From NCBI GenBank assembly GCA_965223845.1, contig CBDCXR010000004.1:1760001-1824000 (forward strand): DNA of 64,000 nt. Reading direction: 5' to 3'. Of this stretch, positions 20,870-51,343 are shown in pieces (the stretch's first letter is position 1; every line of letters starts with the position of its first letter). This stretch comes from Planctomycetota bacterium. Lineage in GTDB: Bacteria > Planctomycetota > UBA8108 > SXIK01. Both the position numbers and the translations under genes were made by a program. The notes under the pieces are model-generated. The model searched no databases. It saw only the letters and a list, made by a program, of their open reading frames with translations, and had not been told where the DNA came from.

Positions 20870-22174
20870 GTGACCCGCGCTCACCTCGCCCGCGTCCAGC
20901 TAGCTAGACTCACCGCGCTCCTCCGCGCGCTCTGGGAGCGGAATCCGTTCTACACGCGGAAGCTGCGCGCGGCGGGATGGTCGCCTTCGGTGCTCGACGG
21001 CCCGCTCGAGCTCGACTCGCTTCTCGACTCGCTCCCGCTCACGACGAAGGCGGAGCTTCAAGCCGCGCAAGCCGAGCATCCGCCGTTCGGCGACAACCTC
21101 ACGTCGCCGCTCGAGGAGTACGTGCGCGTCCACCAGACCTCGGGATCGACGGGCGAGCCGCTCCGCTGGGTCGACACTCGCGAGAGTTGGGATTGGGTGG
21201 TCCGCTGCTGGAGCGAAGTCCTCCACGGAGCGGCGGTCACCCCCGGTGATCGCGCCCTATTCCCGTTTTCATTCGGTCCGTTTCTCGGGTTCTGGGCTGG
21301 CTTCGAAGCGGCGGAACGACTCGGAGTGTTCGTGATCGCCGGCGGCGGAATGCGATCGACGCAGCGGCTCCGATGCATCGTCGATCAGGATGTGTCCGTC
21401 ATCGCTTGTACGCCGACTTACGCGCTCCATCTGGCGGAAGTCGCGCGCGACGAGGGGATCGAGCTCGCGCAGTCGAGTGTACGCGCGGTAATCGTCGCCG
21501 GTGAGCCGGGCGGTTGCATTCCCGCGACGCGAAGCCGCATCGAGGAATCATGGGGTGCGCGCTGCTTCGATCACTGCGGCATGACGGAGGTCGGACCGTT
21601 TGGTGTCGACGATGGCTCGCGCGGGCAGTGCCTTCGCGTCCTCGAGGATGAGTTCATCGTCGAAGTGCTCGCGCCCGATTCGCAATCGCGCGCCGCAGAC
21701 GGTGAAGGCGAACTCGTCATCACCAATCTCGGTCGAACCGCGAGCCCCGTCGTTCGCTACCGAACGGGCGACTCGGTCCGCTGGGTCACGGGAACCGGTG
21801 ACGACGGCTCGGCGTGCGGCTGGCTCGATGGTGGGATCCGGGGGCGCATCGACGAGATGGTGATTGTGAAGGGAAACAACGTATACCCGTCGGCGATCGA
21901 ATCCGTGCTGCGCGAGTTCGACGACGTCGCCGAGTATCGCGTCCGCGTTCTCCCGAGTGGAGAAATGGCGGAGCTTGTCGTAGAGATCGAGCCTCGAGCG
22001 GGATCTAAGCGGTCGGTTTCGCATCGAGGCGAGCTCGCGGCCGCAGTGGCCGCGAGGCTCGAGACGCGCCTCCTCTTCCGCGCGGAAGTGAAGGAAGTGT
22101 CCCCGGGCTCGCTCCCGAGATTCGAGCTCAAGGGACGGCGCGTCGTCCGTGAATCCTCGGGAGAGAATCAGTAA
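20870..22174 (+). CDS. Phenylacetate-CoA-ligase (PaaK)-family aryl-CoA ligase
   Basis: QTSGSTG P-loop, CTPTYALHL, GEPG, GMTEVG, RYRTGD and GRIDEM..VKGNNVYP. Confidence 0.88.
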   Translation: MTRAHLARVQLARLTALLRALWERNPFYTRKLRAAGWSPSVLDGPLELDSLLDSLPLTTKAELQAAQAEHPPFGDNLTSPLEEYVRVHQTSGSTGEPLRWVDTRESWDWVVRCWSEVLHGAAVTPGDRALFPFSFGPFLGFWAGFEAAERLGVFVIAGGGMRSTQRLRCIVDQDVSVIACTPTYALHLAEVARDEGIELAQSSVRAVIVAGEPGGCIPATRSRIEESWGARCFDHCGMTEVGPFGVDDGSRGQCLRVLEDEFIVEVLAPDSQSRAADGEGELVITNLGRTASPVVRYRTGDSVRWVTGTGDDGSACGWLDGGIRGRIDEMVIVKGNNVYPSAIESVLREFDDVAEYRVRVLPSGEMAELVVEIEPRAGSKRSVSHRGELAAAVAARLETRLLFRAEVKEVSPGSLPRFELKGRRVVRESSGENQ

Positions 22175-22277
22175 GGAACACGCGCCGGAAGTGGATCCAA
22201 CCTCTTCTGCGTGGGATGCAAACTGGACGGTAGACACCCTCTCCGACGGTGATCACCGACGGAGGGGAAGGAGATCG

Positions 22278-24518
22278 ATGGTGATACCTAAAGTGGCTCG
22301 AGCGAAGACCGAAAGTCCGCGGACTCGCAGTGTCGCGATCGGAGCGGTAAGCGTCGTCGCGGCGCTCCTCAGTGTTTCTGCGTTTGCCGGTGACTGGCCC
22401 AACTGGCGAGGCCCCGAGAACAACGGCGCGGCGCGAGAGACGAAGCTGCCCGGTGAATGGGAGCTGCGCTGGAAGGCGCCCTTCGGAGGTCGTTCGACCC
22501 CCGTCGTGCACAACGGGCGCGTCTATGTTCTCAACCGGGCTGGTTCGGGTGTGAACGAGCAGGAGCGGGTCCTTTGCGTCGACGCCAAGAGCGGCGATGT
22601 CCTCTGGGAGCACCGCTTCGGCGTCTACCTCACCGACATCCCTTCGACTCGCATCGGATGGGCGAGTCCGGTCGTCGATCCGGAGACAGGACACGTTTAC
22701 GCGCACGGCGTCCAGAACACGTTCATCTGTCTCGACCGCGACGGCAAAGTCATTTGGCGTCGCCAGCTTCACGAAGAGTACGGGACGATCAACGGGTACG
22801 GTGGTCGCACGCATACTCCCATCATCGACGAAGACCGCGTCGTGATCAGCTTCCTCAACTCGAGCTGGGGACCGCAGGCACCGGGTCGACATCGCTATGT
22901 CGCTTTCGACAAGCGCACCGGCGCCGTGCAGTGGTGGGCGACGCCCGGGGGGCCTCCCCTCGACACGACCTATTCCGTTCCGGTCGTCGCCGTCGTCGGC
23001 GGCGTGCGACAACTCATCGCGGGAAACGCCGATGGCAACGTCTACGGTATGGAGGCGCGCACCGGCCGTCGGCTGTGGACATTCCGCGTGTCGAAGCGAG
23101 GCATCAATGCCTCGCTGGTCGAGTGGAACGGGAAGGTCTTCGTCTCGCACAGCGAGGAGAACATCGACGAAGCTTCGATGGGGCGCGTGATCTGCATCGA
23201 TGCGACCGGACGCGGCGACATCACGAAGACTCACGAAGTGTGGCGCCAGGACGGAATCACGGCCGGCTACGCCTCTCCAGCGATCTCGAATGGACGATGC
23301 TACGTCGCGGACAACTCCGCGAATCTTCACTGCTACGATGCAACGACCGGAACTGAACTCTGGGCGATCAACTTCGGCACGGTTGCCAAGGGGTCGCCCG
23401 TCGTCGCGGACGGGAAGATTTACATCTGCGAAGTCAACGGCAAGTTCCTGATCCTCGATGCGGGCGAAACGAAGAGCAAGATTCTGAGCACCAAGGAGTT
23501 CCACACCGACGACGGCGTCGTCGAAATGTTCGGATCACCGGCGATCGCGGGCGGCCGCATCTACTTCAACACGCGCGACGAGCTCTACTGCTTGGGCGCG
23601 AAGGAATGGGACGGAAGCACCGCCGAAGCCCCCGCCGCGCCGACCGAGGTCGCTTCCGCGGATGCGAAGGCGACTCTGCTTCACGTCGTGCCGGCGGACG
23701 TCGTCCTCGAGCCCGGTCAGTCGATCGCGTTCGGAACGAAGGCGTTCGACGACACCGGCCGCGCCGTCGAGCTCTCGGGCGAGGCGGAGTGGTCGGTCGT
23801 GGGGGTCGAGGGTGAAATCTCCGCAAGCGGGAAGCTGACGGTGTCCGCCGCGAATTCCTTCGGGCAGGGCTTCGTCGTCGCGAAGCTCGGAGATCTCGAG
23901 GGGCGCGCACGGATTCGTACGACGCCACCGATCCCATTCAGCGTGGACTTCTCGGGGGTGGCTGCGACGAAGCCGCCGGCGGGTTGGGTCGGTGCAGGGA
24001 TCAAGTTCGTCGGCGCAGAGTACAAGGGCGAAGCGGTTCTCACAAAGCCGGGGACTCGCTCTAAGTTCATGGACGCCGAGACGTTCTTCGGACTGTCGAC
24101 GTGGCGCAATTACACCATCGAAGCCGATGTGCTCGCGATCGAGCGCAAGCGGAATCTGCCCAACATCGGCGTGATCAACTCCGGATACGAGTTCGTGCTG
24201 ATGGGAAACCATCAGCGCCTCCGCATCGTGTCGTGGGTGCCGCAGCCGCGCATCGAGAAGAAGGTGCGCTTCAAGTGGGACCCGGAAGTTTGGTACCGTA
24301 TGAAGTTTCGTGTCGCGGAGAAGGGGGGAGTCGCGACCCTTCAGGGAAAAGTCTGGAAGCGCGACGATGCCGAGCCGGAAGCGTGGACGGTCGAACTCGA
24401 AGACCCGAACCCGAACGGGGGCGGGGCTCCGGCTCTCCACGGTTACTCGGCGGGGGCGCGAGCCAAGTCGGCGGGCGCTCAGATTTATTACGACAACGTC
24501 AAGGTGACGCGAAATTGA
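22278..24518 (+). CDS. Secreted BamB/PQQ-like beta-propeller protein with Ig-like and C-terminal jelly-roll domains
   Basis: ATG 22278 after GGAGGGGAAGGAG. Signal peptide ends AFA. DWPNWRGP plus repeated D..TG...W and SP.V..G.IY blades. Confidence 0.88.
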   Translation: MVIPKVARAKTESPRTRSVAIGAVSVVAALLSVSAFAGDWPNWRGPENNGAARETKLPGEWELRWKAPFGGRSTPVVHNGRVYVLNRAGSGVNEQERVLCVDAKSGDVLWEHRFGVYLTDIPSTRIGWASPVVDPETGHVYAHGVQNTFICLDRDGKVIWRRQLHEEYGTINGYGGRTHTPIIDEDRVVISFLNSSWGPQAPGRHRYVAFDKRTGAVQWWATPGGPPLDTTYSVPVVAVVGGVRQLIAGNADGNVYGMEARTGRRLWTFRVSKRGINASLVEWNGKVFVSHSEENIDEASMGRVICIDATGRGDITKTHEVWRQDGITAGYASPAISNGRCYVADNSANLHCYDATTGTELWAINFGTVAKGSPVVADGKIYICEVNGKFLILDAGETKSKILSTKEFHTDDGVVEMFGSPAIAGGRIYFNTRDELYCLGAKEWDGSTAEAPAAPTEVASADAKATLLHVVPADVVLEPGQSIAFGTKAFDDTGRAVELSGEAEWSVVGVEGEISASGKLTVSAANSFGQGFVVAKLGDLEGRARIRTTPPIPFSVDFSGVAATKPPAGWVGAGIKFVGAEYKGEAVLTKPGTRSKFMDAETFFGLSTWRNYTIEADVLAIERKRNLPNIGVINSGYEFVLMGNHQRLRIVSWVPQPRIEKKVRFKWDPEVWYRMKFRVAEKGGVATLQGKVWKRDDAEPEAWTVELEDPNPNGGGAPALHGYSAGARAKSAGAQIYYDNVKVTRN

Positions 24519-24595
24519 GTGTCTCGGGAGACTCCCGAACGCTCGCGCGAGCACGGAACGAATTCATCAACCCACGAGAAGAGATCAGCGAAGCA

Positions 24596-26215
24596 ATGAG
24601 GTATCTCTCGAGTCGCACCGTCGGTGGCTGGATCGCCGCCGCTCTGGTTTTCGCGGTGGCCATCGGCTGCCATTCGTCGGCGAGCGTCGAGGATGTCGAC
24701 GCGGCCGAGTCCGCGTCCGAGTCGGCCGGCGATGGCGATGCGGAATCGGCGGCCGTCGAGGTCGCTTCCGATGCCGCTTCTTCGAATTCGGCCGGCGGGA
24801 CCAACGCCGAACCGGAGCCCACCCCTGAACCTGCTCCCGCGCGAACGGACTGGACGATGTGGGGTGGCACACCCGGGCGGAACATGATCAACACCGTCGC
24901 GAAGAACATCCCCGCCGAGTGGGACCTCGAATCGAAGAAGAACATCCTCTGGGCGCAGGCGCTCGGCTCGCAGTCCTACGGGAACACGGTCGTTCACGAC
25001 GGCAGGATCTTCATCGGCACGAACAACGAAGGCCACCGGAACCCGGAAATCAAGGGCGACAAGGGCGTGATCATGTGCTTTCGGGAGAAGGACGGCGAGT
25101 TCCTTTGGCAGATGGTGCACGACAAGCTGGAAGCGGGGCGAGTGAACGACTGGCCGGAGCAGGGGATTTGCTCGTCACCGGTTTGCGAGGACGGCCGGAT
25201 CTACTACGTGAGCAACCGCGCCGAGGTCGTGTGCGCCGACGTCGAGGGGTTCCTCGACGGCGAAAACGATGGACCCTACAAGGACGAAAAGTACACGAGC
25301 AAGATCGACGGAGACGCCATCTGGGTCTTCGACATGATGGACGAGCTCGGAGTCTTTCCTCACAATCTCGCGACCTGCTCTCCGCTCGTCATCGGTGACC
25401 TCATCTTCGTGATCACTTCGAACGGAGTCGAGCGCGACCACATTACGATCCCGAACCCGCGCGCGCCGAGCCTCCTCGCGCTCGATAAGAATACGGGCGA
25501 GCTGAAGTGGGATCGCGCCGATCCCGGCGAGGACATCCTGCACGGGCAGTGGTCGGCACCCTCCTTCATTCGAGCGGGAGGGAAGGACCAGATCATCTTC
25601 CCGGCGGGAGACGGCTGGGTCCGCAGCCACAAACCGGAAGACGGCGAGATCATTTGGGAATTCGATACCAACCCGAAAGACTCCGTGTGGGAGCTCGGAG
25701 GTCGCGGCACCCGCAACAACTTGATCTCGACCGCGGCGTGCGTCGACGGAGTGGTCTACATCGCGGTCGGACAGGATCCCGAGCACGGTGAGGGAATCGG
25801 CCATCTCTACGCGATCGACGCATCGAAGACGGGCGATATCACCGAGTCCGGAAAGCTCTGGCACTACGGGGGCAAGGAGTTCAAGCGAACGATCTCCTCG
25901 TTTGCGGTCGCGGACGGCCTCGTCTACGCGGCGGACTTGAGCGGATTCCTCCACTGCATCGACGCGTCGACCGGCCGTCCGTACTGGATTCACGATACCT
26001 TCGCCGCCGTCTGGGGCTCGCCGACGGTCATCGACGGCAAGGTGTTTCTCGGCGACGAGGACGGCGACGTCGTCGTGCTGCGCCACAGCAAGGACGCGAA
26101 GGAAGTCCTCTTCGAGACGAACATGGAGGACTCCGTCTACACGACACCGATCGTCGCCAACGGAATCCTCTACATCTCGACGCGTACGCACCTGTACGCG
26201 ATCGGAGCGAAGTAG
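24596..26215 (+). CDS. Lipoprotein with BamB/PQQ-like beta-propeller
   Basis: ATG 24596. Lipobox-like VAIGC, an acidic Ala/Ser linker, DWTMWGG..RN and repeated propeller blades. Confidence 0.88.
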   Translation: MRYLSSRTVGGWIAAALVFAVAIGCHSSASVEDVDAAESASESAGDGDAESAAVEVASDAASSNSAGGTNAEPEPTPEPAPARTDWTMWGGTPGRNMINTVAKNIPAEWDLESKKNILWAQALGSQSYGNTVVHDGRIFIGTNNEGHRNPEIKGDKGVIMCFREKDGEFLWQMVHDKLEAGRVNDWPEQGICSSPVCEDGRIYYVSNRAEVVCADVEGFLDGENDGPYKDEKYTSKIDGDAIWVFDMMDELGVFPHNLATCSPLVIGDLIFVITSNGVERDHITIPNPRAPSLLALDKNTGELKWDRADPGEDILHGQWSAPSFIRAGGKDQIIFPAGDGWVRSHKPEDGEIIWEFDTNPKDSVWELGGRGTRNNLISTAACVDGVVYIAVGQDPEHGEGIGHLYAIDASKTGDITESGKLWHYGGKEFKRTISSFAVADGLVYAADLSGFLHCIDASTGRPYWIHDTFAAVWGSPTVIDGKVFLGDEDGDVVVLRHSKDAKEVLFETNMEDSVYTTPIVANGILYISTRTHLYAIGAK

Positions 26216-26275
26216 CGCTGATCCTGTCCTCGAGAACACCTCCTTACGGCGCGCCCGCCGCCTCCCGAGTACATC

Positions 26276-27379
26276 ATGACGAATGACGTTAGAGAACTGA
26301 CGGCTCCCGCGTCCGAGGAGCAGATCCGTACCGCCCGGGAACGCCTCGACGCTTGGGTTGTCGAGGTCGTCGACTGGCACTTCGATCCCGCGACGGGCTG
26401 TCCGTTTTGGCTCGACTACGCATCGAAGCTCGATTGGGATCCGCGAAAAGAGGTGCGCTGCTTCGCCGATCTCAACAAATTCGACGAGTTCGAGGACGAG
26501 TGGCTCCGAGGCGGTCCGGTCCAGCGCTGGGTTCCGAAGGGACTCGAAGGAAAACCCGTCTACGTGTTCGAAACGGGTGGGACGACCGGCGTTCCGAAGT
26601 CACGCATCAACATCGAAGACTTCCGCACCGACTACTCGATGTTCAGTGAGACGCTCTCGGACGACGGCTTCCCGCGCGGCGCCGATTGGCTGTCGCTCGG
26701 GCCGACCGGTCCACGGCGACTTCGCCTCGCGGTCGAGCACCTAGCCCAGGTGCGCGGAGGCATCTGTTTCTGCCTCGACATGGACCCACGCTGGTTCACG
26801 AAGTGTCTCAAGCGAGGCTGGCTCGACGTCGCCGAGGCGTACAAGACTCACGTGATCGACCAAGCTCTCACGCTTCTCAAGGCGCACGAGAACATTCAGT
26901 GTCTCTTCACGACGCCGAAGCTGCTCGAGGCGCTCTGCGAGAAGATCTCGCTCAAGCAGGTCGGCATCAAAGGCATATTCTGCGGCGGCACGCAGATGAC
27001 TCCCCAGTTCCATCGTTTCGCGCGAGAGGAGCTCCTCGAGGGCGTCGAGTTCGTCCCGACCTACGGGAACACGCTCATGGGGCTCGCGTGTCACAAGCCG
27101 TACATTCCGGAGGACGACTACGCGATCATCTACTTCCCACCGCATCCGCGAGCCGTTCTCTCGGTGGTGGATCCCGACGATCCGAAGCGCGACGTCGATG
27201 TGGGCGGAGTGGGCCGCGTGAAGCTCACCACGCTCACCAAGGAGTTTTTCGTACCGGGCTTTCTCGAGCGCGACGAAGCCGAACTCGTCGGACCGATCGC
27301 AAGATACCCCTGGCCGGGAGTGAAGAACGTCCGTCCGTTCTCCCGCTTCCAAACGGCCGTGATCGAGGGAGTTTACTGA
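26276..27379 (+). CDS. Atypical ANL adenylating enzyme, EhpF/LuxE-like
   Basis: WHFDPATGCPFW N-terminus, ETGGTTG.PK P-loop, TTPKLLE, GGT, YGNTL and LERD. Lacks the C-terminal ANL lid, as EhpF does. Confidence 0.75.
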   Translation: MTNDVRELTAPASEEQIRTARERLDAWVVEVVDWHFDPATGCPFWLDYASKLDWDPRKEVRCFADLNKFDEFEDEWLRGGPVQRWVPKGLEGKPVYVFETGGTTGVPKSRINIEDFRTDYSMFSETLSDDGFPRGADWLSLGPTGPRRLRLAVEHLAQVRGGICFCLDMDPRWFTKCLKRGWLDVAEAYKTHVIDQALTLLKAHENIQCLFTTPKLLEALCEKISLKQVGIKGIFCGGTQMTPQFHRFAREELLEGVEFVPTYGNTLMGLACHKPYIPEDDYAIIYFPPHPRAVLSVVDPDDPKRDVDVGGVGRVKLTTLTKEFFVPGFLERDEAELVGPIARYPWPGVKNVRPFSRFQTAVIEGVY

Positions 27380-27382
27380 GCG

Positions 27383-28801
27383 ATGCTTCACATTCCGATC
27401 CTCCGCGGCGGCCGGCCCTACGAGAGTATCGACAAGACCGAAGTGCGGGACTACCGAACGGGCGAGCCCGTCGCGATGCTCAGCGTCGCGAACGGTGGGC
27501 TCATTTCGCGTGACCTCCGCGACCAGAGCATCGCGACGAGCCCACTTCGCCACGTGTCGACGACCGAGCTGATCTCCCGCACGCAGGAAGCGGCGGAGCA
27601 TTTCCTTCACGGTGAGCTTCCGCTCGGGGACTCCACGCAGAGCTACGACGACTACATCGAGCAGCTCTCGTGGACGACGGGATTGCCGAAGACTCTCTGC
27701 CGAGCGAATGCGGAAAAGATCTACCATGTGATGGCGAAGATCGACGAGGTGCTCGGAGGGCTCACGCGAGGCCTTGACCTCTCGATCCTCGATCGCGGCT
27801 TCGGCGAGCAGAACGGACGGACTCTCTGCTTCATGCAGCAGGCGCGCACGCTCGGTGCGGTTCTTCCGAGCAACTCGCCCGGAGTTCATTCGCTGTGGGT
27901 GCCGGCGATCGCTCTCAAGGCGTGCCTCTGCCTGAAGCCGGGGCGGGAGGAGCCGTGGTCTCCGTACCGAGTGCTCCAGGCCTTCCTCAAGGCGGGGATC
28001 CCGGGCGATGCGTGCGGTTTCTATCCGACGACGCACGACGGTGCGCGCGAGATTCTCATGCGTTCCGGTCGCGCGATGGTGTTCGGCGACGCGTCGACGA
28101 CCCGACAGTGGGAAAACAATCCCGCCGTCCAGGTTCACGGACCTGGTTTCAGCAAGGTGATCTTCGGGCCGGATACCGCCGCGAGTTGGCGCGAGCATCT
28201 CGATGTCCTCGCCGAGTCGGTGGCCCTCAACGGCGGACGCTCCTGCATCAATGCCTCGGCGATCTGGACGCCTTCGCACGGACGCGAGCTCGCCGCTGCG
28301 CTCGCCGAACGCCTGGCGTCGATCGCGCCGCGTCCGGCAGACGATCCCGCCGCGGAGCTCCCGGCCTTCGTGAACCCGAAGTTCGCGGAGATGATGGACG
28401 CCGCGATCACGGCTGGTCTCGGAACGCCGGGCGCCGAGGACTTGTCGCTCGCTCACCGGCCGGAGCGCCTCGTTCGACAAGACGGCTGCACGTATCTACT
28501 CCCAACGGTGATTTGGTGCCGCGATCGCGAGCATCCACTGGCGGGGAAGGAGTTTCTCTTCCCGTACGTCGCGGTCGTCGAGTGTCCACCGGAGGACATG
28601 CTCGAAAGCATCGGCCCCACTCTCGTCGCGACCGTCATCACGGATGATCCCGCGCTGAAGGCCGCTCTCATGACTTGCCCGCACGTCGACCGCCTCAACA
28701 TCGGCCCTCAGCCGACCTGCCGCATCAGCTGGGATCAACCGCACGAAGGGAATCTCTTCGAGCACCTCTACCGCCAGCGCGCGTTCCAGTACGTGGCGTA
28801 G
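27383..28801 (+). CDS. ALDH-fold acyl reductase, EhpG/LuxC-like
   Basis: LPSNSPG, LKPG, NGGRSCINAS (catalytic Cys) and EFLFP. HGPGFSK replaces the ELGGK general-base motif. Confidence 0.75.
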   Translation: MLHIPILRGGRPYESIDKTEVRDYRTGEPVAMLSVANGGLISRDLRDQSIATSPLRHVSTTELISRTQEAAEHFLHGELPLGDSTQSYDDYIEQLSWTTGLPKTLCRANAEKIYHVMAKIDEVLGGLTRGLDLSILDRGFGEQNGRTLCFMQQARTLGAVLPSNSPGVHSLWVPAIALKACLCLKPGREEPWSPYRVLQAFLKAGIPGDACGFYPTTHDGAREILMRSGRAMVFGDASTTRQWENNPAVQVHGPGFSKVIFGPDTAASWREHLDVLAESVALNGGRSCINASAIWTPSHGRELAAALAERLASIAPRPADDPAAELPAFVNPKFAEMMDAAITAGLGTPGAEDLSLAHRPERLVRQDGCTYLLPTVIWCRDREHPLAGKEFLFPYVAVVECPPEDMLESIGPTLVATVITDDPALKAALMTCPHVDRLNIGPQPTCRISWDQPHEGNLFEHLYRQRAFQYVA

Positions 28802-28825
28802 ACGAAGCCCGAGTACGCCGCACCC

Positions 28826-38054: not shown

Positions 38055-38058
38055 CCGT

Positions 38059-43353: not shown

Positions 43354-43383
43354 GGTGTTCAGTCTCCCGGTGCTTCTCTCTCG

Positions 43384-44271: not shown

Positions 44272-44349
44272 TGGGCTTCCTCCGACTCGGTCGGCTCCGC
44301 GGTTAGTGTTCCCGACCGAGCCGCGTCGCTCGGTCGCGCCGTCGTCGAT

Positions 44350-44721
44350 TCAGGTCTCCGCACTCGCGGGTCGCGCGGAAGGCTCGCGAAGAAGCGTCTC
44401 GACGATCGTCTTCGGATCCTCTTCGCGCATGTTGCAGATCTCGACCGGAGGTGCAGACTCCCCCTCAGCCAGCGGCGCTCCCGCCGCCTTGAAGAGCCAC
44501 TTCACCGACCGGGGAAAACAGGCCGCGATGCGAACCTCGGCGTTCGGTTCCGCCAATCGCGCGAGAGACGGGTCGCGCCGAGCCGAGAGTTCACACAGGT
44601 CGGCGACCGCCTCGAACGGTTCGCCCGAGCGGGCGAGCTCCGCGAGAACCGCATCCTTTACGCCAGGCGAGATGATCTTCGCGTAGGCGCAATGGCAGTA
44701 GAGGATCCGAGTCGGTGCCAT
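44350..44721 (-). CDS. Small Cys protein resembling the N-terminal Fe-S domain of HdrA
   Basis: YCHC...DLC...AACFPR...NMRE matches the HdrA-N pattern VCHC...MC...AACSPR...NIRE. Confidence 0.65.
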   Translation of the reverse strand: MAPTRILYCHCAYAKIISPGVKDAVLAELARSGEPFEAVADLCELSARRDPSLARLAEPNAEVRIAACFPRSVKWLFKAAGAPLAEGESAPPVEICNMREEDPKTIVETLLREPSARPASAET

Positions 44722-44779
44722 GAGAAGTACCACGAGATAAACCCCGGTCGAGGAGACGACTCTCGGGCCGAATCCCGAC

Positions 44780-44808
44780 ATGCTATCAGGATCGGCGGAG
44801 GATGTCAG
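44780..44808 (-). promoter_or_regulatory. Putative internal sigma70 promoter CTGACA-N17-TAGCAT
   Basis: 5/6 match at -35 (44808-44803), 17-nt spacer and 4/6 match at -10 (44785-44780), in the 210-nt gap before the Fe-S/terpene genes. Confidence 0.35.
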
Positions 44809-44931
44809 CTCCCGTGCCAGGGAAGCCAAGACGGGATAGGGAGTTACGTCGATTGCGCGGAGCTCGGAGCGCGCTCGGCGGCGGCCGGGCGCACGAGTCC
44901 CGAGATTCTCCTCGGGGCTTCGCTCCTCCCG

Positions 44932-46029
44932 TCATTCCTCCATGCGGTGCGTCGGCTGGGGCTCGCCCGGACGGAAGCTCTCGAGATCGTCGACCCGGAC
45001 GTCGGGGACCGAGATCTCCTCGAGGACCGACGCGACGGCTTCGCGGAGGACCGCGGGATCGGCCTCGGCGCGCAGATTGATGATCAGCTCGCCCGAACGA
45101 ATCGGGGTAGAGAGGCGCATTCCCGTCTCGGGGACGAATTCATTGCCGACGAGCTGACTCACCGCGAGCTCGCCGAGCACGGTACCGCTCGAGAGCGTGA
45201 GTTTCAGGTGCGCGATGTCGCGGACGTCACCCCGCAGGCGCTCCTGCAGCGACGCCATGATCCCGTCGACGAACGCGTTGCCGTCGAACTCTTCGGCGTG
45301 GCTCACGGTCGCGGTCGCGTTCAGCCACCCGAGGAGAGCCTCGCCCTCGCCGTAGATCGCGTAGTCGAGGTCCATCGCTTTCCCGCCCGGGAGATCCTCC
45401 GCGAGGATCCGATCGAGCCACGCGTCGAGGCCCTCGCCGCTCCGCGCCGAGACCTGAATCACGTCCGCACGCGCAAAGCGTTCCGCGAGAGCGCTCTCGA
45501 GCGCACGTCTCTCGTCCGGCGAGAGCAGATCGATCTTGTTGATCGCGATGAGGTGCGCCTCCTCGAGCTGCTTCTCGTAGATGTAGACGACTTTGCGCGA
45601 GAATTGCCGTCCGGATTCGAGCCCGAGTACCCGCATCGCTCGGCGCGGATCGACGAGCACGGTGAGCGGGGCGATCCGATAGCGCTCACCGTACATTCGC
45701 CGTAGCGGGTAACTGACCGAGGCGACGAGATCGGTGCAACTACCGACCGGCTCAGCGAGGAATACGTCGGGGCGATTCGCCGCGCTGAGATTGTCCGCCG
45801 CCGCGAGGAGGGAGCTGAACCGGCAGCAGAAACAACCGCCCGCGATCTCTTCAACGGCGTAGCCGCGCGCGCGGAGGAACCGCGTATCGACGAGGCCCTC
45901 TCCCTGATCGTTCGTGATCAATCCCACGGAGAGTCCCCGGGCGACGATCCGCTTCGCGAGCTCGGCGAGGGCCGTCGATTTACCCGCGCCGAGGAAGCCG
46001 CCGACCATGATGTAGTGTGCTCGATCCAA
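44932..46029 (-). CDS. CobW/COG0523-family G3E metallochaperone GTPase
   Basis: GGFLGAGKST, ITND.G, GGCFCC, EPVG and INKID. Confidence 0.9.
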   Translation of the reverse strand: MDRAHYIMVGGFLGAGKSTALAELAKRIVARGLSVGLITNDQGEGLVDTRFLRARGYAVEEIAGGCFCCRFSSLLAAADNLSAANRPDVFLAEPVGSCTDLVASVSYPLRRMYGERYRIAPLTVLVDPRRAMRVLGLESGRQFSRKVVYIYEKQLEEAHLIAINKIDLLSPDERRALESALAERFARADVIQVSARSGEGLDAWLDRILAEDLPGGKAMDLDYAIYGEGEALLGWLNATATVSHAEEFDGNAFVDGIMASLQERLRGDVRDIAHLKLTLSSGTVLGELAVSQLVGNEFVPETGMRLSTPIRSGELIINLRAEADPAVLREAVASVLEEISVPDVRVDDLESFRPGEPQPTHRMEE

Positions 46030-46059
46030 GGGATCCTCGAGTTTTCTCGTATCGGTGGG

Positions 46060-46566
46060 TCAGCAGTCGGCGCCACCCGCGCCGAGGTCCACTCCGCTCC
46101 GCCAGGGTTGCTCGAGCATCTTGTCGATCGTCGCGTGGAGCTGCGCGACGTATCCCTCGACGTCGACGGCCTTCGGATCGGGCGTCCCGCGGAGCGCGAA
46201 CAGCCAACCGTCGCCGTACGGATCCTTGCAGATCAGCTCGGGGTCCTCGCGGACGGCGGGATTCACGCCAGCGAATTCACCGCCCGCCACAGAATAGATA
46301 TCCGAGACCGCCTTAAACCCTTCGATCCAGCCGAGGGCCTGCGCGACCTCGACTTTTTGCCCCTCGTCGACTTCAAACTCGAACTCCACGATTTCGCCGA
46401 GCATTCGAGTTGCGAACCCGGTGAGTCCGACTCGCCACGTGGATGCGTCCTTCTCGTCGGGGCACGTGAGCCAGTAGTGCGAGAGCGTGTAGACGTACTC
46501 GCGGGGCAGTCGAGTCGAGAAGTGGTTTCGCTTGAAGCGAATCGGGCCGTCGTCCGGGGCGGTCAT
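46060..46566 (-). CDS. Glycine-cleavage H-protein-like (lipoyl-domain) carrier protein
   Basis: SHYW...RVGLT.FA..LG.I, IEGFKAVSD (lipoyl-site Lys), VN and DPYGDGWLF. No gcvT or gcvP in the window. Confidence 0.85.
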   Translation of the reverse strand: MTAPDDGPIRFKRNHFSTRLPREYVYTLSHYWLTCPDEKDASTWRVGLTGFATRMLGEIVEFEFEVDEGQKVEVAQALGWIEGFKAVSDIYSVAGGEFAGVNPAVREDPELICKDPYGDGWLFALRGTPDPKAVDVEGYVAQLHATIDKMLEQPWRSGVDLGAGGADC

Positions 46567-46580
46567 CGGTGTGACTTTTC

Positions 46581-47786
46581 TCAGCGCTCGCCGGTTGGAA
46601 GGCAGTGATCGGCGCGCGGGGCCGATCGGGGTCGAGCGCGCAGCTCGGTCACGGCCGCGATCACCGAGTCGGCGGCTCGCTCGATCTCGTCGGGCGTCGT
46701 CGTTCGTCCGAGACCGAATCGCAGCGACCCCTCCGCGGCCGCGCTCGAGCCGTAGAGCATCTGGAGGACGTAGGAGCCGGTTTGCTTCGCCGACGAACAC
46801 GCGGCGCCGGACGAGACCGCGACGCTGGGGATGGCGCGGAGGAGGTCCTCGCTGTGAACGCCGAATCCGACGCTCAGATTGTTCGGGAGACGATCCGTCA
46901 TCGTTCCGTGGAGGGTGACACCCTCGAGCCCCGTGCGCAGACGGTGCCAGAGGCGGTCCCGCAGTTTGGAGATGCGTTCGCTGTCGCGGTCTCGCTCCTC
47001 GGCGACGATCGCGGCCGCGCAGCCGAAGCCCACGATCCCCGGAACGTTGAGTGTTCCCGACCGCAGACCGCGCTCGTGTCCACCCCCGTCGATTTGCGCG
47101 CGCAGTCGCACCCGCGGCCGACGCCGGCGCACATAGAGGGCGCCGACGCCTTTCGGCCCGTACATCTTATGCGCGGAAAGCGAGAGGAGATCGACGCCGA
47201 GCTCGTCGACCCCGAGCGGAAGATGCGCTCCGGCCTGGGCGGCGTCCGAATGAAGGAGCGTGCCGTGCCGACGACAAATCGCCGAGATCTCTCGGAGCGG
47301 ATGCACCGTGCCGATCTCGTTGTTCGCGTACATGAGGGAAACGAGCGCAGTCTCGTCGCGAATCGCATTCTCGAGTCGATCGAGGTCGAGCGTTCCGTCC
47401 GCGTCGACTCCGAGATAGGTCACCTCGAACCCGTCTTCCTCGAGGCGTGCGCAGGTATCGAGAACCGCTTTGTGCTCGGTCCCACAGGTGACCAGGTGTC
47501 GTCCGCGCGCACCGGTCGCGGTCATGACGCCTTTGAGCGCGAGGTTGTTCGATTCCGTCGCGCCCGAGGTGAATACGATCTCGCGGGGATCCGCGGCGAG
47601 CAGATCGGCGACTTCCGCGCGTGCGCGCTCGACGTGGCGAGCCGCGGCCCGTCCGGCCGCGTGCTGTGCGCTCGCGGCGTTTCCGAACGTCTCCGCGAAC
47701 ATCGGGAGCATCGCTTCGACGACGCGGGGATCGCACGGCGTCGTCGCGTGGTGATCGAGATAAATCGGTGAAAATTCAGCGGCCAA
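46581..47786 (-). CDS. iscS: Cysteine desulfurase, IscS/NifS group I
   Basis: IYLDHHATTP, FTSGATESNN, EHKAV, ANNEIG, DAAQ, SAHKMYGPKG, RSGTLN and SSGAACSS. TTG start is estimated. Confidence 0.88.
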   Translation of the reverse strand: MAAEFSPIYLDHHATTPCDPRVVEAMLPMFAETFGNAASAQHAAGRAAARHVERARAEVADLLAADPREIVFTSGATESNNLALKGVMTATGARGRHLVTCGTEHKAVLDTCARLEEDGFEVTYLGVDADGTLDLDRLENAIRDETALVSLMYANNEIGTVHPLREISAICRRHGTLLHSDAAQAGAHLPLGVDELGVDLLSLSAHKMYGPKGVGALYVRRRRPRVRLRAQIDGGGHERGLRSGTLNVPGIVGFGCAAAIVAEERDRDSERISKLRDRLWHRLRTGLEGVTLHGTMTDRLPNNLSVGFGVHSEDLLRAIPSVAVSSGAACSSAKQTGSYVLQMLYGSSAAAEGSLRFGLGRTTTPDEIERAADSVIAAVTELRARPRSAPRADHCLPTGER

Positions 47787-48208
47787 GAGAGGTCCGAACG
47801 GGGACGTGGCGAGGTCGGAGAGCAGTCTCGGTGGTGGTCTACGCGGTGCCGGAGATTCTATCGCGACTCGCACGATCGATCCAAAACCGTCGGCGACGCG
47901 AGCCGCTTGGGCCGCGGCGGCCGCCCGAGCGTTTTCGGTACTTGTCGGGAGCGGTTCCCGACCGACCGCTCGCGACGAGCACCGGCGCGACTCCCGCGCG
48001 GCGGGGCGATTCCCGTCGCATCCTTCGGGCGAGGAGGATCTCAATCTTGCCCGCTCGAGTCCGAGCGCGCCTCGGCGCGCTGTGGGTCGAAATCCTTTCT
48101 TGTCCGGCAGCCGCCCTCTTATGATCACTCTGTCCCGACTTCAAACGCTGAGACAGCCGAGTCGAGTGACGTCGATTTCTCCATCTCTCCGCGACTCTCA
48201 CCAACGCG

Positions 48209-49513
48209 ATGACGACGCCCCTCTCCGAAGAAGATACCGAAGTCGGTAGTTACTTCATCTCGAACTACCCGCCGTTCAGCTTTTGGAAGCCGGAGCACGT
48301 AGATTCCGCCCGGGCGGCCATCGATCGATCGCCCGCGCCGGACGTACCGCTCGGACTCTATCTCCACATCCCGTTTTGCCGAAAACGGTGCAAGTTCTGC
48401 TACTTTCGGGTCTACACCGAAAAGAACAGCCGTGAAGTGGAGCGCTATCTAGCCGCACTCGTTCGCGAGATCGCTCTATACAGCGAGCGGCCCGTCCTCG
48501 AGGGGCGACCGTTTCGATTCGCGTATTTCGGCGGTGGAACGCCGTCGTTCCTCAGCGAGAAGCAGCTCCTCTCCCTGGTCGATCGACTGCGCGCGTCGAT
48601 CGATTGGGACGACGCCGAGGAGGTCACGTTCGAGTGCGAGCCGGGAACGCTCACCGAACGAAAGCTGCGGGCGATCCGCGAGCTGGGAGTGACGCGCCTC
48701 AGTCTCGGCATCGAGAATTTCGACGACGCCATTCTCGAAGAGAACGGACGGGCACACCGCAGTCCGGAAGTGTTTCGCGCGTACGAGTGGGCTCGGGCGA
48801 TCGGATTCCCACAGATCAACGTCGATCTCATCGCCGGGATGGTCGGTGAAACGACAGAGAACTGGCACGAGTGTGTGCGGAAGACGATCGAGCTCGCGCC
48901 CGATTCGGTGACGATCTACCAGCTCGAGCTTCCGTTCAACGCGGTGTACTCGAGCGAGCTCCGAACGGGCGGCGAAGTCTCCGTCGCGACGTGGGGGCGG
49001 AAGCGGGAGTGGGTGGCCTACGCGTTCGACGCGCTGCGCGAAGCCGGCTATTCCGTCTCGAGCGCTTACACCATGGTGAAGGACCCCGACGCCAAGTTCG
49101 TCTATCGCGATGCGCTCTGGCGCGGCGCCGACATGCTCGGGACGGGGGTCGCTTCGTTTTCGCACGTCGCCGGCGTGCATTTTCAGAATCTTGACACCGA
49201 CACGCAGTACCTGGAGTCGCTCGAGAGCGGCGAGCTTCCGATCGGACGCGCGCTTCCCGTCACGGATCGCCAACGCATGATTCGCGAATTGATCCTCCAG
49301 CTCAAGCTCGGCTCGGTGGACCCGGCGTACTTTGAGCGCAAATTCGGGTTAAGGATCACGCGAGAGTTCGGTTCGGTCTGGGACGACCTTCGTGACCACG
49401 GGTATCTCGAGTCCGGCGACCCGCCCACTTTGACGCGAGACGGGCTTTTGCGCGTCGACGCGTTCCTCCCGCGATTCTTCGAGCCGGAGCACCAAGGCGC
49501 TCGGTATACGTAA
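48209..49513 (+). CDS. HemN-like radical SAM enzyme (class C methyltransferase-like)
   Basis: LYLHIPFCRKRCKFCYF (CxxxCxxC), FGGGTPS, ECEP, RLSLG and NVDLIAG. N-terminus has SNYPP rather than the HemN PRYTSYP. Confidence 0.88.
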   Translation: MTTPLSEEDTEVGSYFISNYPPFSFWKPEHVDSARAAIDRSPAPDVPLGLYLHIPFCRKRCKFCYFRVYTEKNSREVERYLAALVREIALYSERPVLEGRPFRFAYFGGGTPSFLSEKQLLSLVDRLRASIDWDDAEEVTFECEPGTLTERKLRAIRELGVTRLSLGIENFDDAILEENGRAHRSPEVFRAYEWARAIGFPQINVDLIAGMVGETTENWHECVRKTIELAPDSVTIYQLELPFNAVYSSELRTGGEVSVATWGRKREWVAYAFDALREAGYSVSSAYTMVKDPDAKFVYRDALWRGADMLGTGVASFSHVAGVHFQNLDTDTQYLESLESGELPIGRALPVTDRQRMIRELILQLKLGSVDPAYFERKFGLRITREFGSVWDDLRDHGYLESGDPPTLTRDGLLRVDAFLPRFFEPEHQGARYT

Positions 49514-49526
49514 GTCGAATTCGGCC

Positions 49527-50084
49527 ATGACACCGACCGTTCAGCTGACGACTCTCCTCGATTCTTTCCCGGACGGTCCTTTCCGTTCGAGCGATCTAGA
49601 GCTCATCTCACCAGCCGAGGTGCCGGAGCCCTACGCGCGGCTCCTCGTCCACAACCACCACATGACGGTGACGCTCGAAGATTTCCACCGAGCGACGCTT
49701 TCTCTCCAGGTGCTTGGCGAGAAGCGGACGGACGACAGCTACACGCGGCGGCTCACGCTGAGCGTGGGCTCTCCTGAAGAAGACCGACGGGTCGTCCTCG
49801 CAGGAATCATGCGCATCGCGCTCGATCGCTGCAGCGACCGAGTACGGCACGAGATCCTCTCCGGGGCGACACCCCTCGGGCGAATCCTAATCTCGAATCG
49901 CGTTCTTCGCCGAGTCGAGTCCAACGCGTATCTTCGCGTGAAGCTGAGCGCGCCCATCCGGACGATGTTCGCGCTCGCCGATGACACCAAGGGGTTCGCC
50001 TACGGACGCATCGCGCGCATCTTCTGCGACGGTGAGCAGGCGATCGAGCTGCTCGAGATCGTTCCGCCGGAGCCGGAAGAATGA
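49527..50084 (+). CDS. Chorismate-lyase (UbiC/UTRA-fold)-like protein
   Basis: LLVH..HMT.TLE, YTRR..L, EILSGATPLGRIL, YGR and final LLEI resemble the chorismate pyruvate-lyase pattern. Confidence 0.6.
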   Translation: MTPTVQLTTLLDSFPDGPFRSSDLELISPAEVPEPYARLLVHNHHMTVTLEDFHRATLSLQVLGEKRTDDSYTRRLTLSVGSPEEDRRVVLAGIMRIALDRCSDRVRHEILSGATPLGRILISNRVLRRVESNAYLRVKLSAPIRTMFALADDTKGFAYGRIARIFCDGEQAIELLEIVPPEPEE

Positions 50085-51343
50085 ACGATCGAGTCCCGGT
50101 AGTGGTGATCGGCGGTGGGCCGGCGGGCTCGACGGTCGCGGCGCTTCTCGCGGACGCGGGAGTCGGCGTGCGGCTCTTAGAGCGTGCGACGATGCCGCGC
50201 TTTCACATCGGAGAGTCTCTCATCACGGAAACCTACTGGACGTTCGAGCGCCTCGGGGTTCTCGATCGCTTGAAGGCCTCGGACTTCCCGAAGAAGTACA
50301 GCGTTCAGTTCATCTCCGAGAGCGGGCGTGCCTCTCGTCCGTTTTATTTCTACGAGCGGGATCCGCACGAGAGCTCGATGACTTGGCAGGTCGACCGCGC
50401 GGAGTTCGACCAGATGCTCCTTCAGAACGCGGCCGCGAAGGGGGCAGATGTCCGTACCGGCTACGGAGTTCGCCGCGTCCGCTTCGACGGCGAGCGCGCC
50501 GTGGGGGTCGAAGGGACGGACTCCGCGGGCGAACCATTCGCACTCGACGCGGATGTCGTGGTCGACGCGACGGGCCTTCACGCGCTCCTCGCTCGCCAAG
50601 AAAACCTCCTCCAGCGGGACCCGCATCTCGTCAAGGCCGCCGTATTCACGCACTTCGAAGGGGCGAGGCGAGACGAGGGAATCGACGAGGGCGCGACGCT
50701 CATCATCCACACGAAGGGAAACCGCGGCTGGTTTTGGTACATCCCGCTCAGTCGGGATCGCGTGAGCGTCGGAGTGGTCGGATCATCGCGGGAACTCATG
50801 CAGGGAGGCGTGAAACCGGACGAGATCCTCGCGCGCGAGATCGAAGCCTGCGCCGCGGTCAAGGATCGCGTTGCCGGCGCGCGACGCGTCAGCGACGTCC
50901 ATGTCACGAGCGACTATACCTACCGGGCGACGCGCTGTGCGGGCGACGGTTACGTGCTCGTCGGCGACGCGTTCGGGTTTCTCGATCCGATCTACTCCTC
51001 CGGCGTCCTGCTCGCGCTGAAATCGGGAGAGCTCGCGGCGGATACGATCGCGGCAGCCCTCGCCGACGGCGACATGTCGGCCGAACGTCTCAGCGCGATG
51101 GGCGCTCCGATCGCGACGGGAATGGAAGCGTTTCGGAAGATGGTCTACGCGTTCTACACACCGGGGTTCAGCTTCGCGAATTTCGTCGCGCAGCATCCGG
51201 AACATCGCGATGCCCTCGTTCGCGTCCTCATCGGAGACGTGTTCAAGGGTGACACCGATGAGATCTTTCAGGCGATGGGCGCGATGTGCGAGCTTCCCGA
51301 GGAAGTTCCTCTCGGCGGGGAAGGACCCGAGCACCGGGCGTGA
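50081..51343 (+). CDS. FAD-dependent oxidoreductase, flavin-dependent halogenase-like
   Basis: GGGPAG, PRFHIGESL, FPKK (Lys at the halogenase catalytic position), GWFWYIP (WxWxIP) and GDA.GFLDPIYSSG. Confidence 0.8.
   Translation: MNDRVPVVVIGGGPAGSTVAALLADAGVGVRLLERATMPRFHIGESLITETYWTFERLGVLDRLKASDFPKKYSVQFISESGRASRPFYFYERDPHESSMTWQVDRAEFDQMLLQNAAAKGADVRTGYGVRRVRFDGERAVGVEGTDSAGEPFALDADVVVDATGLHALLARQENLLQRDPHLVKAAVFTHFEGARRDEGIDEGATLIIHTKGNRGWFWYIPLSRDRVSVGVVGSSRELMQGGVKPDEILAREIEACAAVKDRVAGARRVSDVHVTSDYTYRATRCAGDGYVLVGDAFGFLDPIYSSGVLLALKSGELAADTIAAALADGDMSAERLSAMGAPIATGMEAFRKMVYAFYTPGFSFANFVAQHPEHRDALVRVLIGDVFKGDTDEIFQAMGAMCELPEEVPLGGEGPEHRA

Follow-up and report, generated by a model that had tools for sequence, protein, structure and literature searches.

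Within a 64-kb window of a Planctomycetota contig (the whole stretch of DNA that was analyzed, to which all unprefixed positions refer), positions 20870–51343 elaborate, in a lineage-specific way, on a terpenoid operon that is widespread, conserved and uncharacterized. The operon surrounds a class II terpene cyclase resembling squalene-hopene cyclase (SHC) and combines it with a fused polyprenyl diphosphate synthase and an Fe-S/lipoyl module; genes for aromatic-acid handling adjoin it on both sides. We consider it close to, if slightly short of, an even call that the region is a supercluster seated on this operon, in which the two branches lead to one product or process, most simply a cyclized prenyl-aromatic lipid. 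An initial annotation had taken the region for an undescribed 30-kb cluster with a complete chemical logic. It is not a rare biosynthetic gene cluster: its core is a widespread operon around a clade already flagged in print. The claim of completeness was overstated as well, as it passes over the Fe-S/lipoyl module, the most conserved and least explained part.

A conserved operon around the cyclase

The region holds 23 genes in three strand blocks, as judged by codon-position G+C content, Pfam and NCBIfam: unit 1 (11 genes, plus strand, 20870–37523), unit 2 (9 genes, minus strand, 38059–48128) and unit 3 (3 genes, plus strand, 48209–51343). Unit 2 contains the core operon:

46581–48128, minus: IscS-type cysteine desulfurase, start codon uncertain (Aminotran_5, E 4e-76)
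46060–46566, minus: GcvH-like protein (GCV_H, E 1.5e-21)
44932–46029, minus: CobW/COG0523-type metallochaperone GTPase (cobW, E 1e-23)
44350–44721, minus: 4-Cys flavodoxin-like domain protein (no Pfam or NCBIfam match)
43384–44271, minus: 2x[4Fe-4S] ferredoxin-domain protein (Fer4 families)
41629–43353, minus: DUF116::trans-polyprenyl diphosphate synthase fusion (DUF116, E 2e-37; polyprenyl_synt, E 3e-42)
40803–41687, minus: single-domain Prenyltrans alpha/alpha-toroid protein (Prenyltrans, E 1e-13)
40016–40792, minus: CN hydrolase (CN_hydrolase, E 1e-21)
38059–39873, minus: SHC-like class II terpene cyclase with a DADD motif (SQHop_cyclase_C and SQHop_cyclase_N, Pfam)

The window proteins were compared by tblastn with the best 80 of 464 confirmed cyclase loci (given L numbers here), each taken with up to 10 kb on either side and drawn from Planctomycetota, Verrucomicrobiota, Acidobacteriota and others. 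Many of the 80 loci lie on short contigs, so raw counts understate presence; counts are also given for the 39 full-flank loci, which have at least 8 kb on both sides. The core genes were found next to the cyclase as follows:

Toroid protein: 40 of 80 loci, 27 of 39 full-flank loci
DUF116-synthase: 36 of 80, 23 of 39
Ferredoxin: 25 of 80, 19 of 39
4-Cys protein: 25 of 80, 19 of 39
GcvH-like protein: 20 of 80, 16 of 39
IscS: 20 of 80, 14 of 39
CobW-like protein: 17 of 80, 13 of 39

Fifteen of the 39 full-flank loci contain at least five of these seven genes, and the operon context is distributed over most clades of our tree of 81 close cyclase relatives. A Verrucomicrobiota-rich clade contains lone cyclases, often with a gene for a DCC1-like thiol-disulfide oxidoreductase just before them. 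Such a gene lies directly 5' of the cyclase, and abuts it, in 11 loci (L001, L006, L029, L034, L038, L041, L042, L046, L054, L055 and L066), where the toroid gene is absent or has moved upstream.

All-against-all clustering of the 5810 open reading frames (ORFs) from the 80 loci added one core member, a gene of ~400 codons for a radical S-adenosylmethionine (SAM) protein whose best matches are SPASM-like and all under cut-off. It lies between the ferredoxin and synthase genes in 24 of the 80 loci (L073:4806–6071, L007:6252–7448 and 22 others). In two Vicinamibacterales, an LplA/B-type lipoate-protein ligase gene stands divergent from the IscS end of the operon (L058:911–1861 and L069:988–1881, both minus strand), and this position suggests a dedicated lipoylation enzyme for the GcvH-like protein. 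The clustering also returned an apparent recurrent lipoate ligase (ORF cluster 24), which we rejected as consisting largely of antisense shadows of IscS; L058 and L069 alone have a genuine ligase. Five Verrucomicrobiota loci have a dihydrolipoyl-dehydrogenase (E3)-like gene beside the cyclase (L053:9216–10622, L071, L076, L079 and L080), which in the last four lies 0.6–1.3 kb upstream on the opposite strand. These genes score 350–390 bits against an equivalog cut-off of 409, and four of the five loci are close relatives. On one Planctomycetaceae contig, a small CbiX-type chelatase gene follows a cyclase and DUF116-synthase pair (L077:13864–14277); with the CobW and HemN-like genes found elsewhere, this single case hints at a metal or tetrapyrrole link.

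The cyclase and its clade

The cyclase has 604 amino acids (aa) and two domains. Its DxDD motif, noted in the initial annotation, is D354-A-D-D357-T and is invariant in all 15 aligned homologues. The scores against curated families lie well below their thresholds: 122 bits against 431.1 for the hopene-cyclase equivalog TIGR01507, 127.8 against 322.7 for the squalene/oxidosqualene cyclase subfamily model and 102 against 851 for the oxidosqualene cyclase (OSC) model. The closest structure is an SHC (1gsz, E 2e-33), which aligns with the C-terminal half only.

In a homologue search, all 8000 scored candidates reached E ≤ 0.001. The 119 non-self matches listed are 51–63% identical to the cyclase and span Planctomycetota, Verrucomicrobiota and Acidobacteriota; homologues were also found in Sumerlaeota, Hydrogenedentales and Methylomirabilota, and some database entries label them squalene-hopene cyclase. 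A profile of 15 aligned cyclases detected at least 585 stretches in species-representative genomes, 464 of which were confirmed, and at least 464 species-level genomes have a relative.

Two evolutionary studies bear on this family. The portions available of Santana-Molina et al. (2020; PMC7306690) state that SHC-like proteins of Planctomycetes retain the residues critical for catalysis and that the genomic surroundings suggest non-squalene precursors; supplementary figure S10 of that paper, on SHC-like genomic context, could already include some of the core operon. A 2025 study (PMC12414744), in the sections accessible, delimits an 'SHC-like / unknown function' clade of 550–700 aa with undemonstrated function, which has as its sister clade the epoxy-polyprenyl cyclases of meroterpenoid and sesterterpenoid pathways. 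Our protein has the length, the catalytic residues and the range across PVC (Planctomycetes, Verrucomicrobia and Chlamydiae), FCB (Fibrobacteres, Chlorobi and Bacteroidetes) and Acidobacteriota that mark this clade, to which it very probably belongs. Our literature searches returned nothing functional on 'SHC-like' cyclases beyond these two papers, and no functional study of a cyclase with a polyprenyl synthase and a desulfurase or radical SAM enzyme in these phyla. The parts available of two further sources (10.1101/2025.07.29.667474 and PMC8692599) contain no description of the core operon.

Synthase, toroid protein and the Fe-S/lipoyl module

The synthase half of the DUF116 fusion has both Asp-rich motifs (DDIED and DDLDD). 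In 37 of 38 aligned synthases the sequence reads HKASL[IVAL]HDDI[EQ]D, the remaining one being a truncated fragment, and 37 of 38 have Ala and Ser at positions −5 and −4. Under the chain-length rule for these enzymes, small residues at −5/−4 go with products longer than C20. In the DUF116 half, seven Cys residues, including a CxxCxxC motif, are conserved in 35–36 of 36 full-length homologues, and for this reason we regard it as probably a metal or Fe-S domain. A phmmer search of this half against the Protein Data Bank (PDB) gave no match, and a literature search for 'DUF116' gave, among the 20 papers listed of 32, only unrelated DUF116x matches (VPS13 and others) or a brief mention.

The toroid protein is about as similar to single domains of class II cyclases as to protein prenyltransferase beta subunits: its profile matches drimenyl-PP-synthase-type cyclases and Rab geranylgeranyltransferase (RabGGTase) beta both at ~1e-11 (5e-11 for the latter). 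Protein prenyltransferase beta subunits bind Zn through Asp, Cys and His. Across 35 toroid sequences neither a Cys nor a His is invariant, which does not fit such a subunit, and the DxDD motif is missing. The toroid gene stays beside the cyclase even where the synthase gene lies elsewhere. Two longer proteins contain the toroid domain, one of them joined to tRNA-synthetase domains, which is weak evidence and amounts to no recurrent fusion. A complex prediction for cyclase and toroid protein gave no answer (score 0.00) and speaks neither for nor against binding. In the window, the CN hydrolase gene separates these two genes; other genomes have a gap of ~0–100 bases at this position.

Most of the remaining operon genes concern Fe-S clusters, sulfur, lipoate or metals. 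The IscS-type protein scores 462–480 bits against the NCBIfam IscS models, under their cut-offs, and the GcvH-like protein 78–82 bits against 116–117 for the GcvH equivalog. With the lipoyl-lysine position kept in G-F-K-A-V-S-D, the latter is a predicted lipoyl-type carrier. The 124-aa 4-Cys protein carries four Cys (C10, C12, C44 and C69) that are invariant in 26 sequences. Its AlphaFold2 (AF2) model (pLDDT 87) is a flavodoxin-like alpha/beta domain, for which a fold search against the PDB yielded nothing at E ≤ 0.001 (best E 0.016); the ESM Atlas gave only unnamed clusters. An earlier reading as an HdrA-N-like protein found no support, MvhD ranking 39 in the fold search with E 0.13. The domain family numbers 714 representatives at E ≤ 0.001. 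Among the 150 best, 65 have a length of 230 aa or more, and nine of ten long ones scanned bear a C-terminal 4Fe-4S dicluster domain (Fer4). Since relatives fuse the two, the separate 4-Cys protein and ferredoxin are predicted to function as one electron-transfer unit.

Aromatic-acid genes beside the operon

Units 1 and 3 contribute eight candidate genes for the formation, activation or modification of an aromatic acid:

20870–22174, plus: PaaK-like aryl-acid CoA ligase (AMP-binding and AMP-binding_C_2)
26276–27379, plus: EhpF-like stand-alone adenylase, ANL N-domain only (phmmer against the PDB)
27383–28801, plus: aldehyde dehydrogenase (ALDH)-superfamily reductase, LuxC/EhpG-like by position (Aldedh, E 4e-9; PDB ALDHs)
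28826–29989, plus: Fe-dependent alcohol dehydrogenase, Fe-ADH (Fe-ADH, E 8e-47)
32827–33270, plus: 4HBT-fold thioesterase (4HBT_2, E 6e-12)
48209–49513, plus: HemN-like radical SAM enzyme (Radical_SAM; CxxxCxxC motif)
49527–50084, plus: chorismate-lyase-fold protein, 185 aa (AF2 and Foldseek)
50081–51343, plus: flavin-dependent halogenase homologue (Trp_halogenase, E 9e-35)

The assignments made in the initial annotation held up for the EhpF-like adenylase, the thioesterase and the halogenase-like flavoprotein. The adenylase matches EhpF (3l2k/3hgu) at E 2.3e-39 over residues 27–367 of 367 against 23–366 of 366; this full-length homology, together with the missing ANL C-terminal domain, identifies it as EhpF-type. 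The ALDH-like protein, previously called a LuxC/EhpG-like reductase, belongs to the ALDH superfamily and is 46% identical to its counterpart in L067 (Aldedh 1e-20 there), with a conserved G-R-x-C-I-N motif that includes the Cys, but it has no LuxC match in Pfam. PaaK models give the CoA ligase 199–205 bits, far under their cut-offs, and the HemN, ChuW and HemW models all score the HemN-like enzyme under cut-off.

A chorismate-lyase-like identity for the 185-aa protein was confirmed at fold level only. Pfam and NCBIfam searches gave no match even at E ≤ 1, and phmmer against the PDB none. Many homologues are named chorismate-pyruvate lyase by the Joint Genome Institute, and a lead came from the ESM Atlas as well. 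In Foldseek, the AF2 model (pLDDT 94) matched 2nwi (AF1396/DUF98) at E 4.6e-9 with a template-modeling (TM) score of 0.65–0.78, and E. coli chorismate lyase (1fw9) at E 2.4e-5. The ligand-binding UTRA domains of GntR-type regulators have the chorismate-lyase fold too.

Flavin-dependent halogenases are recognized by GxGxxG, WxWxIP and FxxPxxSxG motifs and a catalytic Lys. The homologue has GGGPAG, WFWYIP and FLDPIYSSG, and a Lys in F-P-K-K-Y aligns with the Lys of halogenase 8zop, its top match (E 9e-63). The 14 best of 24 PDB relatives are halogenases or halogenase-family flavoproteins, which argues that the protein is a true halogenase relative.

Association of the three units

The proposed link between the units extends beyond this genome. 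In two Vicinamibacterales chromosomes (L058 and L069), the cyclase gene is followed on the same strand by genes for Fe-ADH, propeller, HemN-like, lyase-like, halogenase-like, 4HBT and PaaK-like proteins. These accessory genes are 32–61% identical to those of the window, similar to the core genes; in L058 the propeller- and halogenase-like genes were identified by tblastn. On a Planctomycetota contig (L067), the order is EhpF-like, DUF4058, ALDH-like, Fe-ADH, propeller, HemN-like, GcvH, ferredoxin and cyclase, so that accessory genes run unbroken into core genes on one strand. Partial versions are seen in L051, where cyclase, DUF116-synthase and lyase-like genes stand in a row, and in L053, where the cyclase is followed by a small gene, a PaaK-like gene and the E3-like gene.

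Identities to the window proteins are 49–56% for the PaaK-like ligase (L053, L058 and L069), 58% for the EhpF-like adenylase (L067), 53–55% for Fe-ADH and 60–63% for the HemN-like enzyme (both in L058, L067 and L069), 38–42% for 4HBT, which lies beside the PaaK-like gene, and 46–48% for the halogenase homologue (both in L058 and L069). The window, the L058/L069 pair and L067 each occupy a different position on the cyclase tree. For a 20-kb neighborhood in a genome of 6–8 Mb, repeated chance adjacency would be improbable if the genes are single-copy.

Two of these loci contain unrelated genes, inserted into an arrangement that is otherwise conserved: DUF4058 lies between the EhpF-like and ALDH-like genes (L067:1779–2564), and GmrSD-N, RiboL-PSP HEPN and aspartyl-protease-like genes lie between the cyclase and Fe-ADH genes (L058:12011–14289).

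Propellers, export genes and flanks

The remaining six genes of the region are all in unit 1:

22278–24518, plus: PQQ_2 beta-propeller 1, signal-peptide-like N-terminus (PQQ_2, E 8e-34)
24596–26215, plus: PQQ_2 beta-propeller 2, lipobox-like N-terminus (PQQ_2, E 2e-22)
29977–31443, plus: PQQ_2 beta-propeller 3, lipobox-like N-terminus (Beta-prop_ACSF4 and PQQ_2)
31478–32830, plus: GT4 glycosyltransferase, candidate member (Glycos_transf_1, E 5e-27)
33313–34032, plus: LolD/MacB-type ATP-binding cassette (ABC) ATPase, candidate member (ABC_tran)
34029–37523, plus: FtsX-type permease, 1164 aa, candidate member (FtsX, E 5e-17)

The three propellers had been called exported. Read by eye, without a signal-peptide predictor, all three N-termini are indeed signal-peptide-like, and a lipobox-like Cys is seen in two. 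Seven loci (L074, L019, L037, L040, L058, L069 and L067) have propellers flanking the core operon or the cyclase. Propeller 1 has a 35% match (E 5e-80) after the toroid gene in L037, propeller 2 one of 44% (E 1e-123) in L019, upstream of the core operon, and propeller 3 matches of 35–40% after the Fe-ADH gene in L058, L069 and L067; in L074, three propellers in tandem directly precede the 4-Cys gene.

A LolD/FtsX export system had likewise been counted as part of the cluster. Its membership is not supported, because the FtsX permease has no counterpart at the 80 loci and the ABC ATPase has only generic matches (28–35% identity, 4 of 80 loci). We also rejected a role in LolCDE lipoprotein release: the ATPase reaches 256.8 bits with the LolD model against a cut-off of 307.75, and the permease, at 1164 aa, is of a duplicated FtsX type.

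Gene selection relied on codon-position G+C, followed by checks with Pfam and NCBIfam; at 65% G+C, six-frame ORF lists of the window are crowded with shadows. The ~23 genes, three units and ATGA overlaps of the initial annotation are borne out, the stop/start overlaps joining GT4 to 4HBT (32827), ABC to FtsX (34029) and the lyase-like to the halogenase gene (50081). Nearly every family assignment was retained, and the GcvH-like gene and the CN hydrolase (40016–40792), which had been omitted, were added. Promoter and terminator scans of the window gave counts equal to those of shuffled sequence, so 'transcription units' denotes strand, spacing and overlaps only. An Rfam scan of the whole window and a tRNA scan found no match. 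The 535-base gap between the convergent FtsX and cyclase genes (37524–38058) contains neither an ORF of coding-like composition nor a convincing terminator, and Rfam gives no match there.

The region is flanked by beta-oxidation enzymes upstream and carbohydrate-active enzymes downstream. A FadB-like fused 3-hydroxyacyl-CoA dehydrogenase/enoyl-CoA hydratase and a thiolase (17090–20704, plus) lie directly 5' of the PaaK-like gene and on its strand, separated from it by 165 bases; they occur at 0 of the 80 cyclase loci. Two large CotH-kinase-domain proteins are encoded at 1178–5611 and 61719–63905 (both minus), the first with 1477 aa and additional lamin-tail, Laminin_G_3 and chitobiase-C domains. 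A 1617-aa ORF (54691–59544, plus) with BNR/sialidase-like, sulfatase and SASA acetylesterase domains adjoins genes for altronate dehydratase, GH88-like, GlcNAc 2-epimerase and DHDPS-family proteins, and these surroundings look like a sulfated-glycan utilization neighborhood.

Comparison with known systems

The published SHC-like clade is the closest match to the window cyclase, with the same PVC/Acidobacteriota range, ~600 aa, retained catalytic residues and a context that points to a non-squalene precursor; nothing contradicts membership. To that clade, our sequence comparisons add the probable composition of its operon and the accessory neighbors.

Among characterized pathways, Lon15 of longestin (a C40 meroterpenoid) and AtoE of the atolypenes, epoxy-polyprenyl cyclases of the sister clade named in PMC12414744, act on regular head-to-tail polyprenyl substrates, as predicted for the window cyclase, and are clustered with a polyprenyl synthase; in the longestin pathway an aromatic acid and a sugar are present too. 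Those cyclases take epoxidized substrates, whereas the only flavoprotein of the window is the halogenase homologue, and they occur in Actinomycetes, whereas the relatives described here are Gracilicutes with an Fe-S/lipoyl module.

EhpF and EhpG, which convert an aromatic carboxylate to the aldehyde, tailor phenazines in Pantoea agglomerans. The window shares a full-length EhpF homologue with an ALDH-superfamily gene directly after it. Unlike that system, it has no phenazine genes, and an Fe-ADH gene follows, which suggests further reduction to the alcohol. The sHdr-LbpA systems of sulfur oxidizers combine a GcvH-like lipoyl protein and its own ligase with a radical SAM enzyme, a flavoprotein of the geranylgeranyl-reductase/halogenase superfamily and Fe-S carriers. 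The present module differs in having no Hdr subunits, in that its radical SAM proteins are SPASM-like or HemN-like and not LipS-like (NCBIfam), and in being tied to terpenoid enzymes.

The cyanobacterial merosterol route, which uses a UbiA prenyltransferase, follows the same idea of joining a chorismate-derived benzoate to a prenyl chain with class II cyclization. Its cyclase MstE is described, in the text available of PMC12414744, as a beta-only protein of 300–400 aa with a DxD motif. We rejected an MstE-type pathway: the window cyclase is a two-domain protein of 604 aa with DxDD, and no UbiA is present in the window. Finally, the baaA-baaB genes of Planctomycetales strain 10988 are proposed, in the part available of a preprint (bioRxiv 10.1101/723874), as a stand-alone and genetically unvalidated route to 3,5-dibromo-p-anisic acid. 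The planctomycete pair likewise has a chorismate-lyase-like gene directly before a same-strand flavin-dependent halogenase-like gene, a likeness of arrangement; the window pair differs in having the HemN-like radical SAM gene upstream and in adjoining a terpenoid operon.

Proposed pathway and alternatives

In the supercluster that we favor, the synthase half of the DUF116 fusion would elongate a prenyl diphosphate, probably to medium or long chain as its family and motifs indicate, and the DxDD cyclase with the adjacent toroid protein would cyclize a derivative of this regular head-to-tail chain, not squalene. The redox/metal module, made up of the 7-Cys DUF116 domain, the 4-Cys domain with the 2x[4Fe-4S] ferredoxin, GcvH, IscS and CobW, and in most other genomes the SPASM-like radical SAM protein, may serve a reductive or sulfur-dependent step on the chain. 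On the aromatic side, the chorismate-lyase-fold protein would make hydroxybenzoate, which the putative halogenase may halogenate and the HemN-like enzyme may modify. The PaaK-like ligase and 4HBT thioesterase would handle a CoA thioester, and the EhpF-like adenylase, ALDH-like reductase and Fe-ADH would take the carboxyl group to the aldehyde and on to the alcohol. Lipoprotein PQQ_2 propellers would act in the envelope, and GT4, ABC/FtsX and the CN hydrolase would be additions specific to this genome. Joining of ring and chain is the simplest reading of the repeated co-location, although no enzyme that would join them was found in the window or recurrently at the loci.

Several observations weigh against this pathway. 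No aromatic prenyltransferase of the UbiA or ABBA type was found in the window and none forms a recurrent cluster among the 5810 ORFs, of which a crude prenyltransferase motif scan flagged two, in unrelated loci; hence 'meroterpenoid', the term of the initial annotation, is something we infer, and of that proposal the gene content stands and the union of ring and chain is putative. Of the 15 full-flank loci with at least five core genes, only two have accessory genes within 10 kb. Lone cyclases, with no core gene, make up 8 of the 39 full-flank loci. GT4, FtsX permease and CN hydrolase counterparts each occur at 0 of the 80 loci, and the SPASM-like gene has no copy in the 64-kb window, being either elsewhere in the source genome or dispensable. 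Placement of the cyclase in its clade was made by length, taxon range, context and failure to reach the SHC and OSC cut-offs. The best NCBIfam matches of the synthase are short- and medium-chain models, all under cut-off. Paralogous PQQ_2 propellers are probably abundant in these phyla, so some of their adjacency may be due to chance.

Much of this would fit two or three separate neighboring pathways, which we think rather unlikely while giving them real weight: a purely isoprenoid cyclic lipid from the core operon, a small halogenated hydroxybenzoate derivative from the lyase-halogenase pair together with the CoA and reductase genes, comparable to the baaA-baaB proposal, and general envelope functions of ABC/FtsX, GT4 and the propellers. 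That no joining enzyme was found, that 13 of the 15 complete core loci are free of accessory genes within 10 kb, and that GT4, FtsX and CN hydrolase do not recur all favor separation, as does the proposal of a lyase-like/halogenase-like pair as a self-contained route in the available part of the preprint on baaA-baaB. Separation does not readily explain why accessory genes adjoin the cyclase in the window, in L058/L069 and in L067 at different tree positions, and partly in L051 and L053, or why in L067 they lead uninterrupted to the GcvH, ferredoxin and cyclase genes of the same strand. Quite improbable, in our estimate, is a redox cofactor or protein-bound prosthetic group (a prenylated or cyclized quinone-like molecule or a modified lipoyl protein) with the propellers as quinoprotein-like users. 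In place of a bulk membrane lipid, this reading would put the Fe-S, lipoyl, IscS and CobW genes at the center of the function. It draws on the five of nine unit-2 genes that handle Fe-S, lipoyl, sulfur or metal, on the LplA- and E3-like genes near other loci, and on the ~51–63% identity across phyla, which suggests a housekeeping role; the halogenase homologue also matches QhpG/LodB-type cofactor-maturing flavoproteins under cut-off, and the propellers weakly match PQQ-dehydrogenase and 'acido-empty-quinoprotein' models. However, the propeller scores are all far under curated cut-offs, the halogenase motifs and nearest structures are those of true halogenases, no precursor peptide or quinone-ring pathway was seen, and we know of no role for a class II cyclase in cofactor maturation.

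An ordinary hopanoid or sterol cluster we reject, giving it hardly any probability, in line with the initial annotation, which had set aside both hopanoid and merosterol clusters. The SQHop_cyclase domains, the DxDD motif and the database entries that say squalene-hopene cyclase would suit it. Against it stand the hopene-cyclase (122 versus 431 bits) and OSC (102 versus 851 bits) scores and the pairing of the cyclase with a head-to-tail polyprenyl synthase. Among the 51 called and scanned genes of the window there are none of the UbiA, SQS_PSY (squalene synthase) or HpnCDE families, as had been stated, and HpnH and HpnG were not found either. Published trees set the SHC-like clade apart, as far as the available parts of PMC7306690 and PMC12414744 show.

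A bolder variant of the favored supercluster, which we rate as unlikely, places the novelty in the Fe-S/lipoyl module. An unrecognized, oxygen-independent route through this module would convert a long, regular polyprenyl diphosphate to what the SHC-like cyclase takes as substrate, the 7-Cys DUF116 domain would be a new reductive isoprenoid enzyme fed by the 4-Cys-ferredoxin unit, lipoyl-GcvH and a radical SAM partner, and the product would be a polycyclic lipid of a new class. Some lineages would add a halogenated benzyl or benzoate head to this lipid and handle it with the propeller lipoproteins.

Significance

Two evolutionary studies, of 2020 and 2025, mark the SHC-like clade as an uncharacterized branch, and its substrate would constrain how triterpenoid cyclization evolved. 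The clade can now be assigned a defined operon that contains a fused DUF116-polyprenyl synthase and, unexpectedly, an Fe-S/lipoyl/IscS module, and aromatic-acid genes and propeller lipoproteins recur as partners. Carriers include Chthoniobacter flavus Ellin428 (L034) and Planctomycetales bacterium ZRK34 (L007), which are cultured or have complete genomes; with the operon defined and its partners known, the question of the product is directly testable. An abundant polycyclic lipid as the product would bear on the membrane biology of PVC bacteria and Acidobacteriota and on how sedimentary terpanes are attributed. Should the Fe-S/lipoyl reading prove true, Planctomycetota, Verrucomicrobiota and Acidobacteriota would have this lipid in common, and it would be a candidate source of orphan terpane biomarkers.

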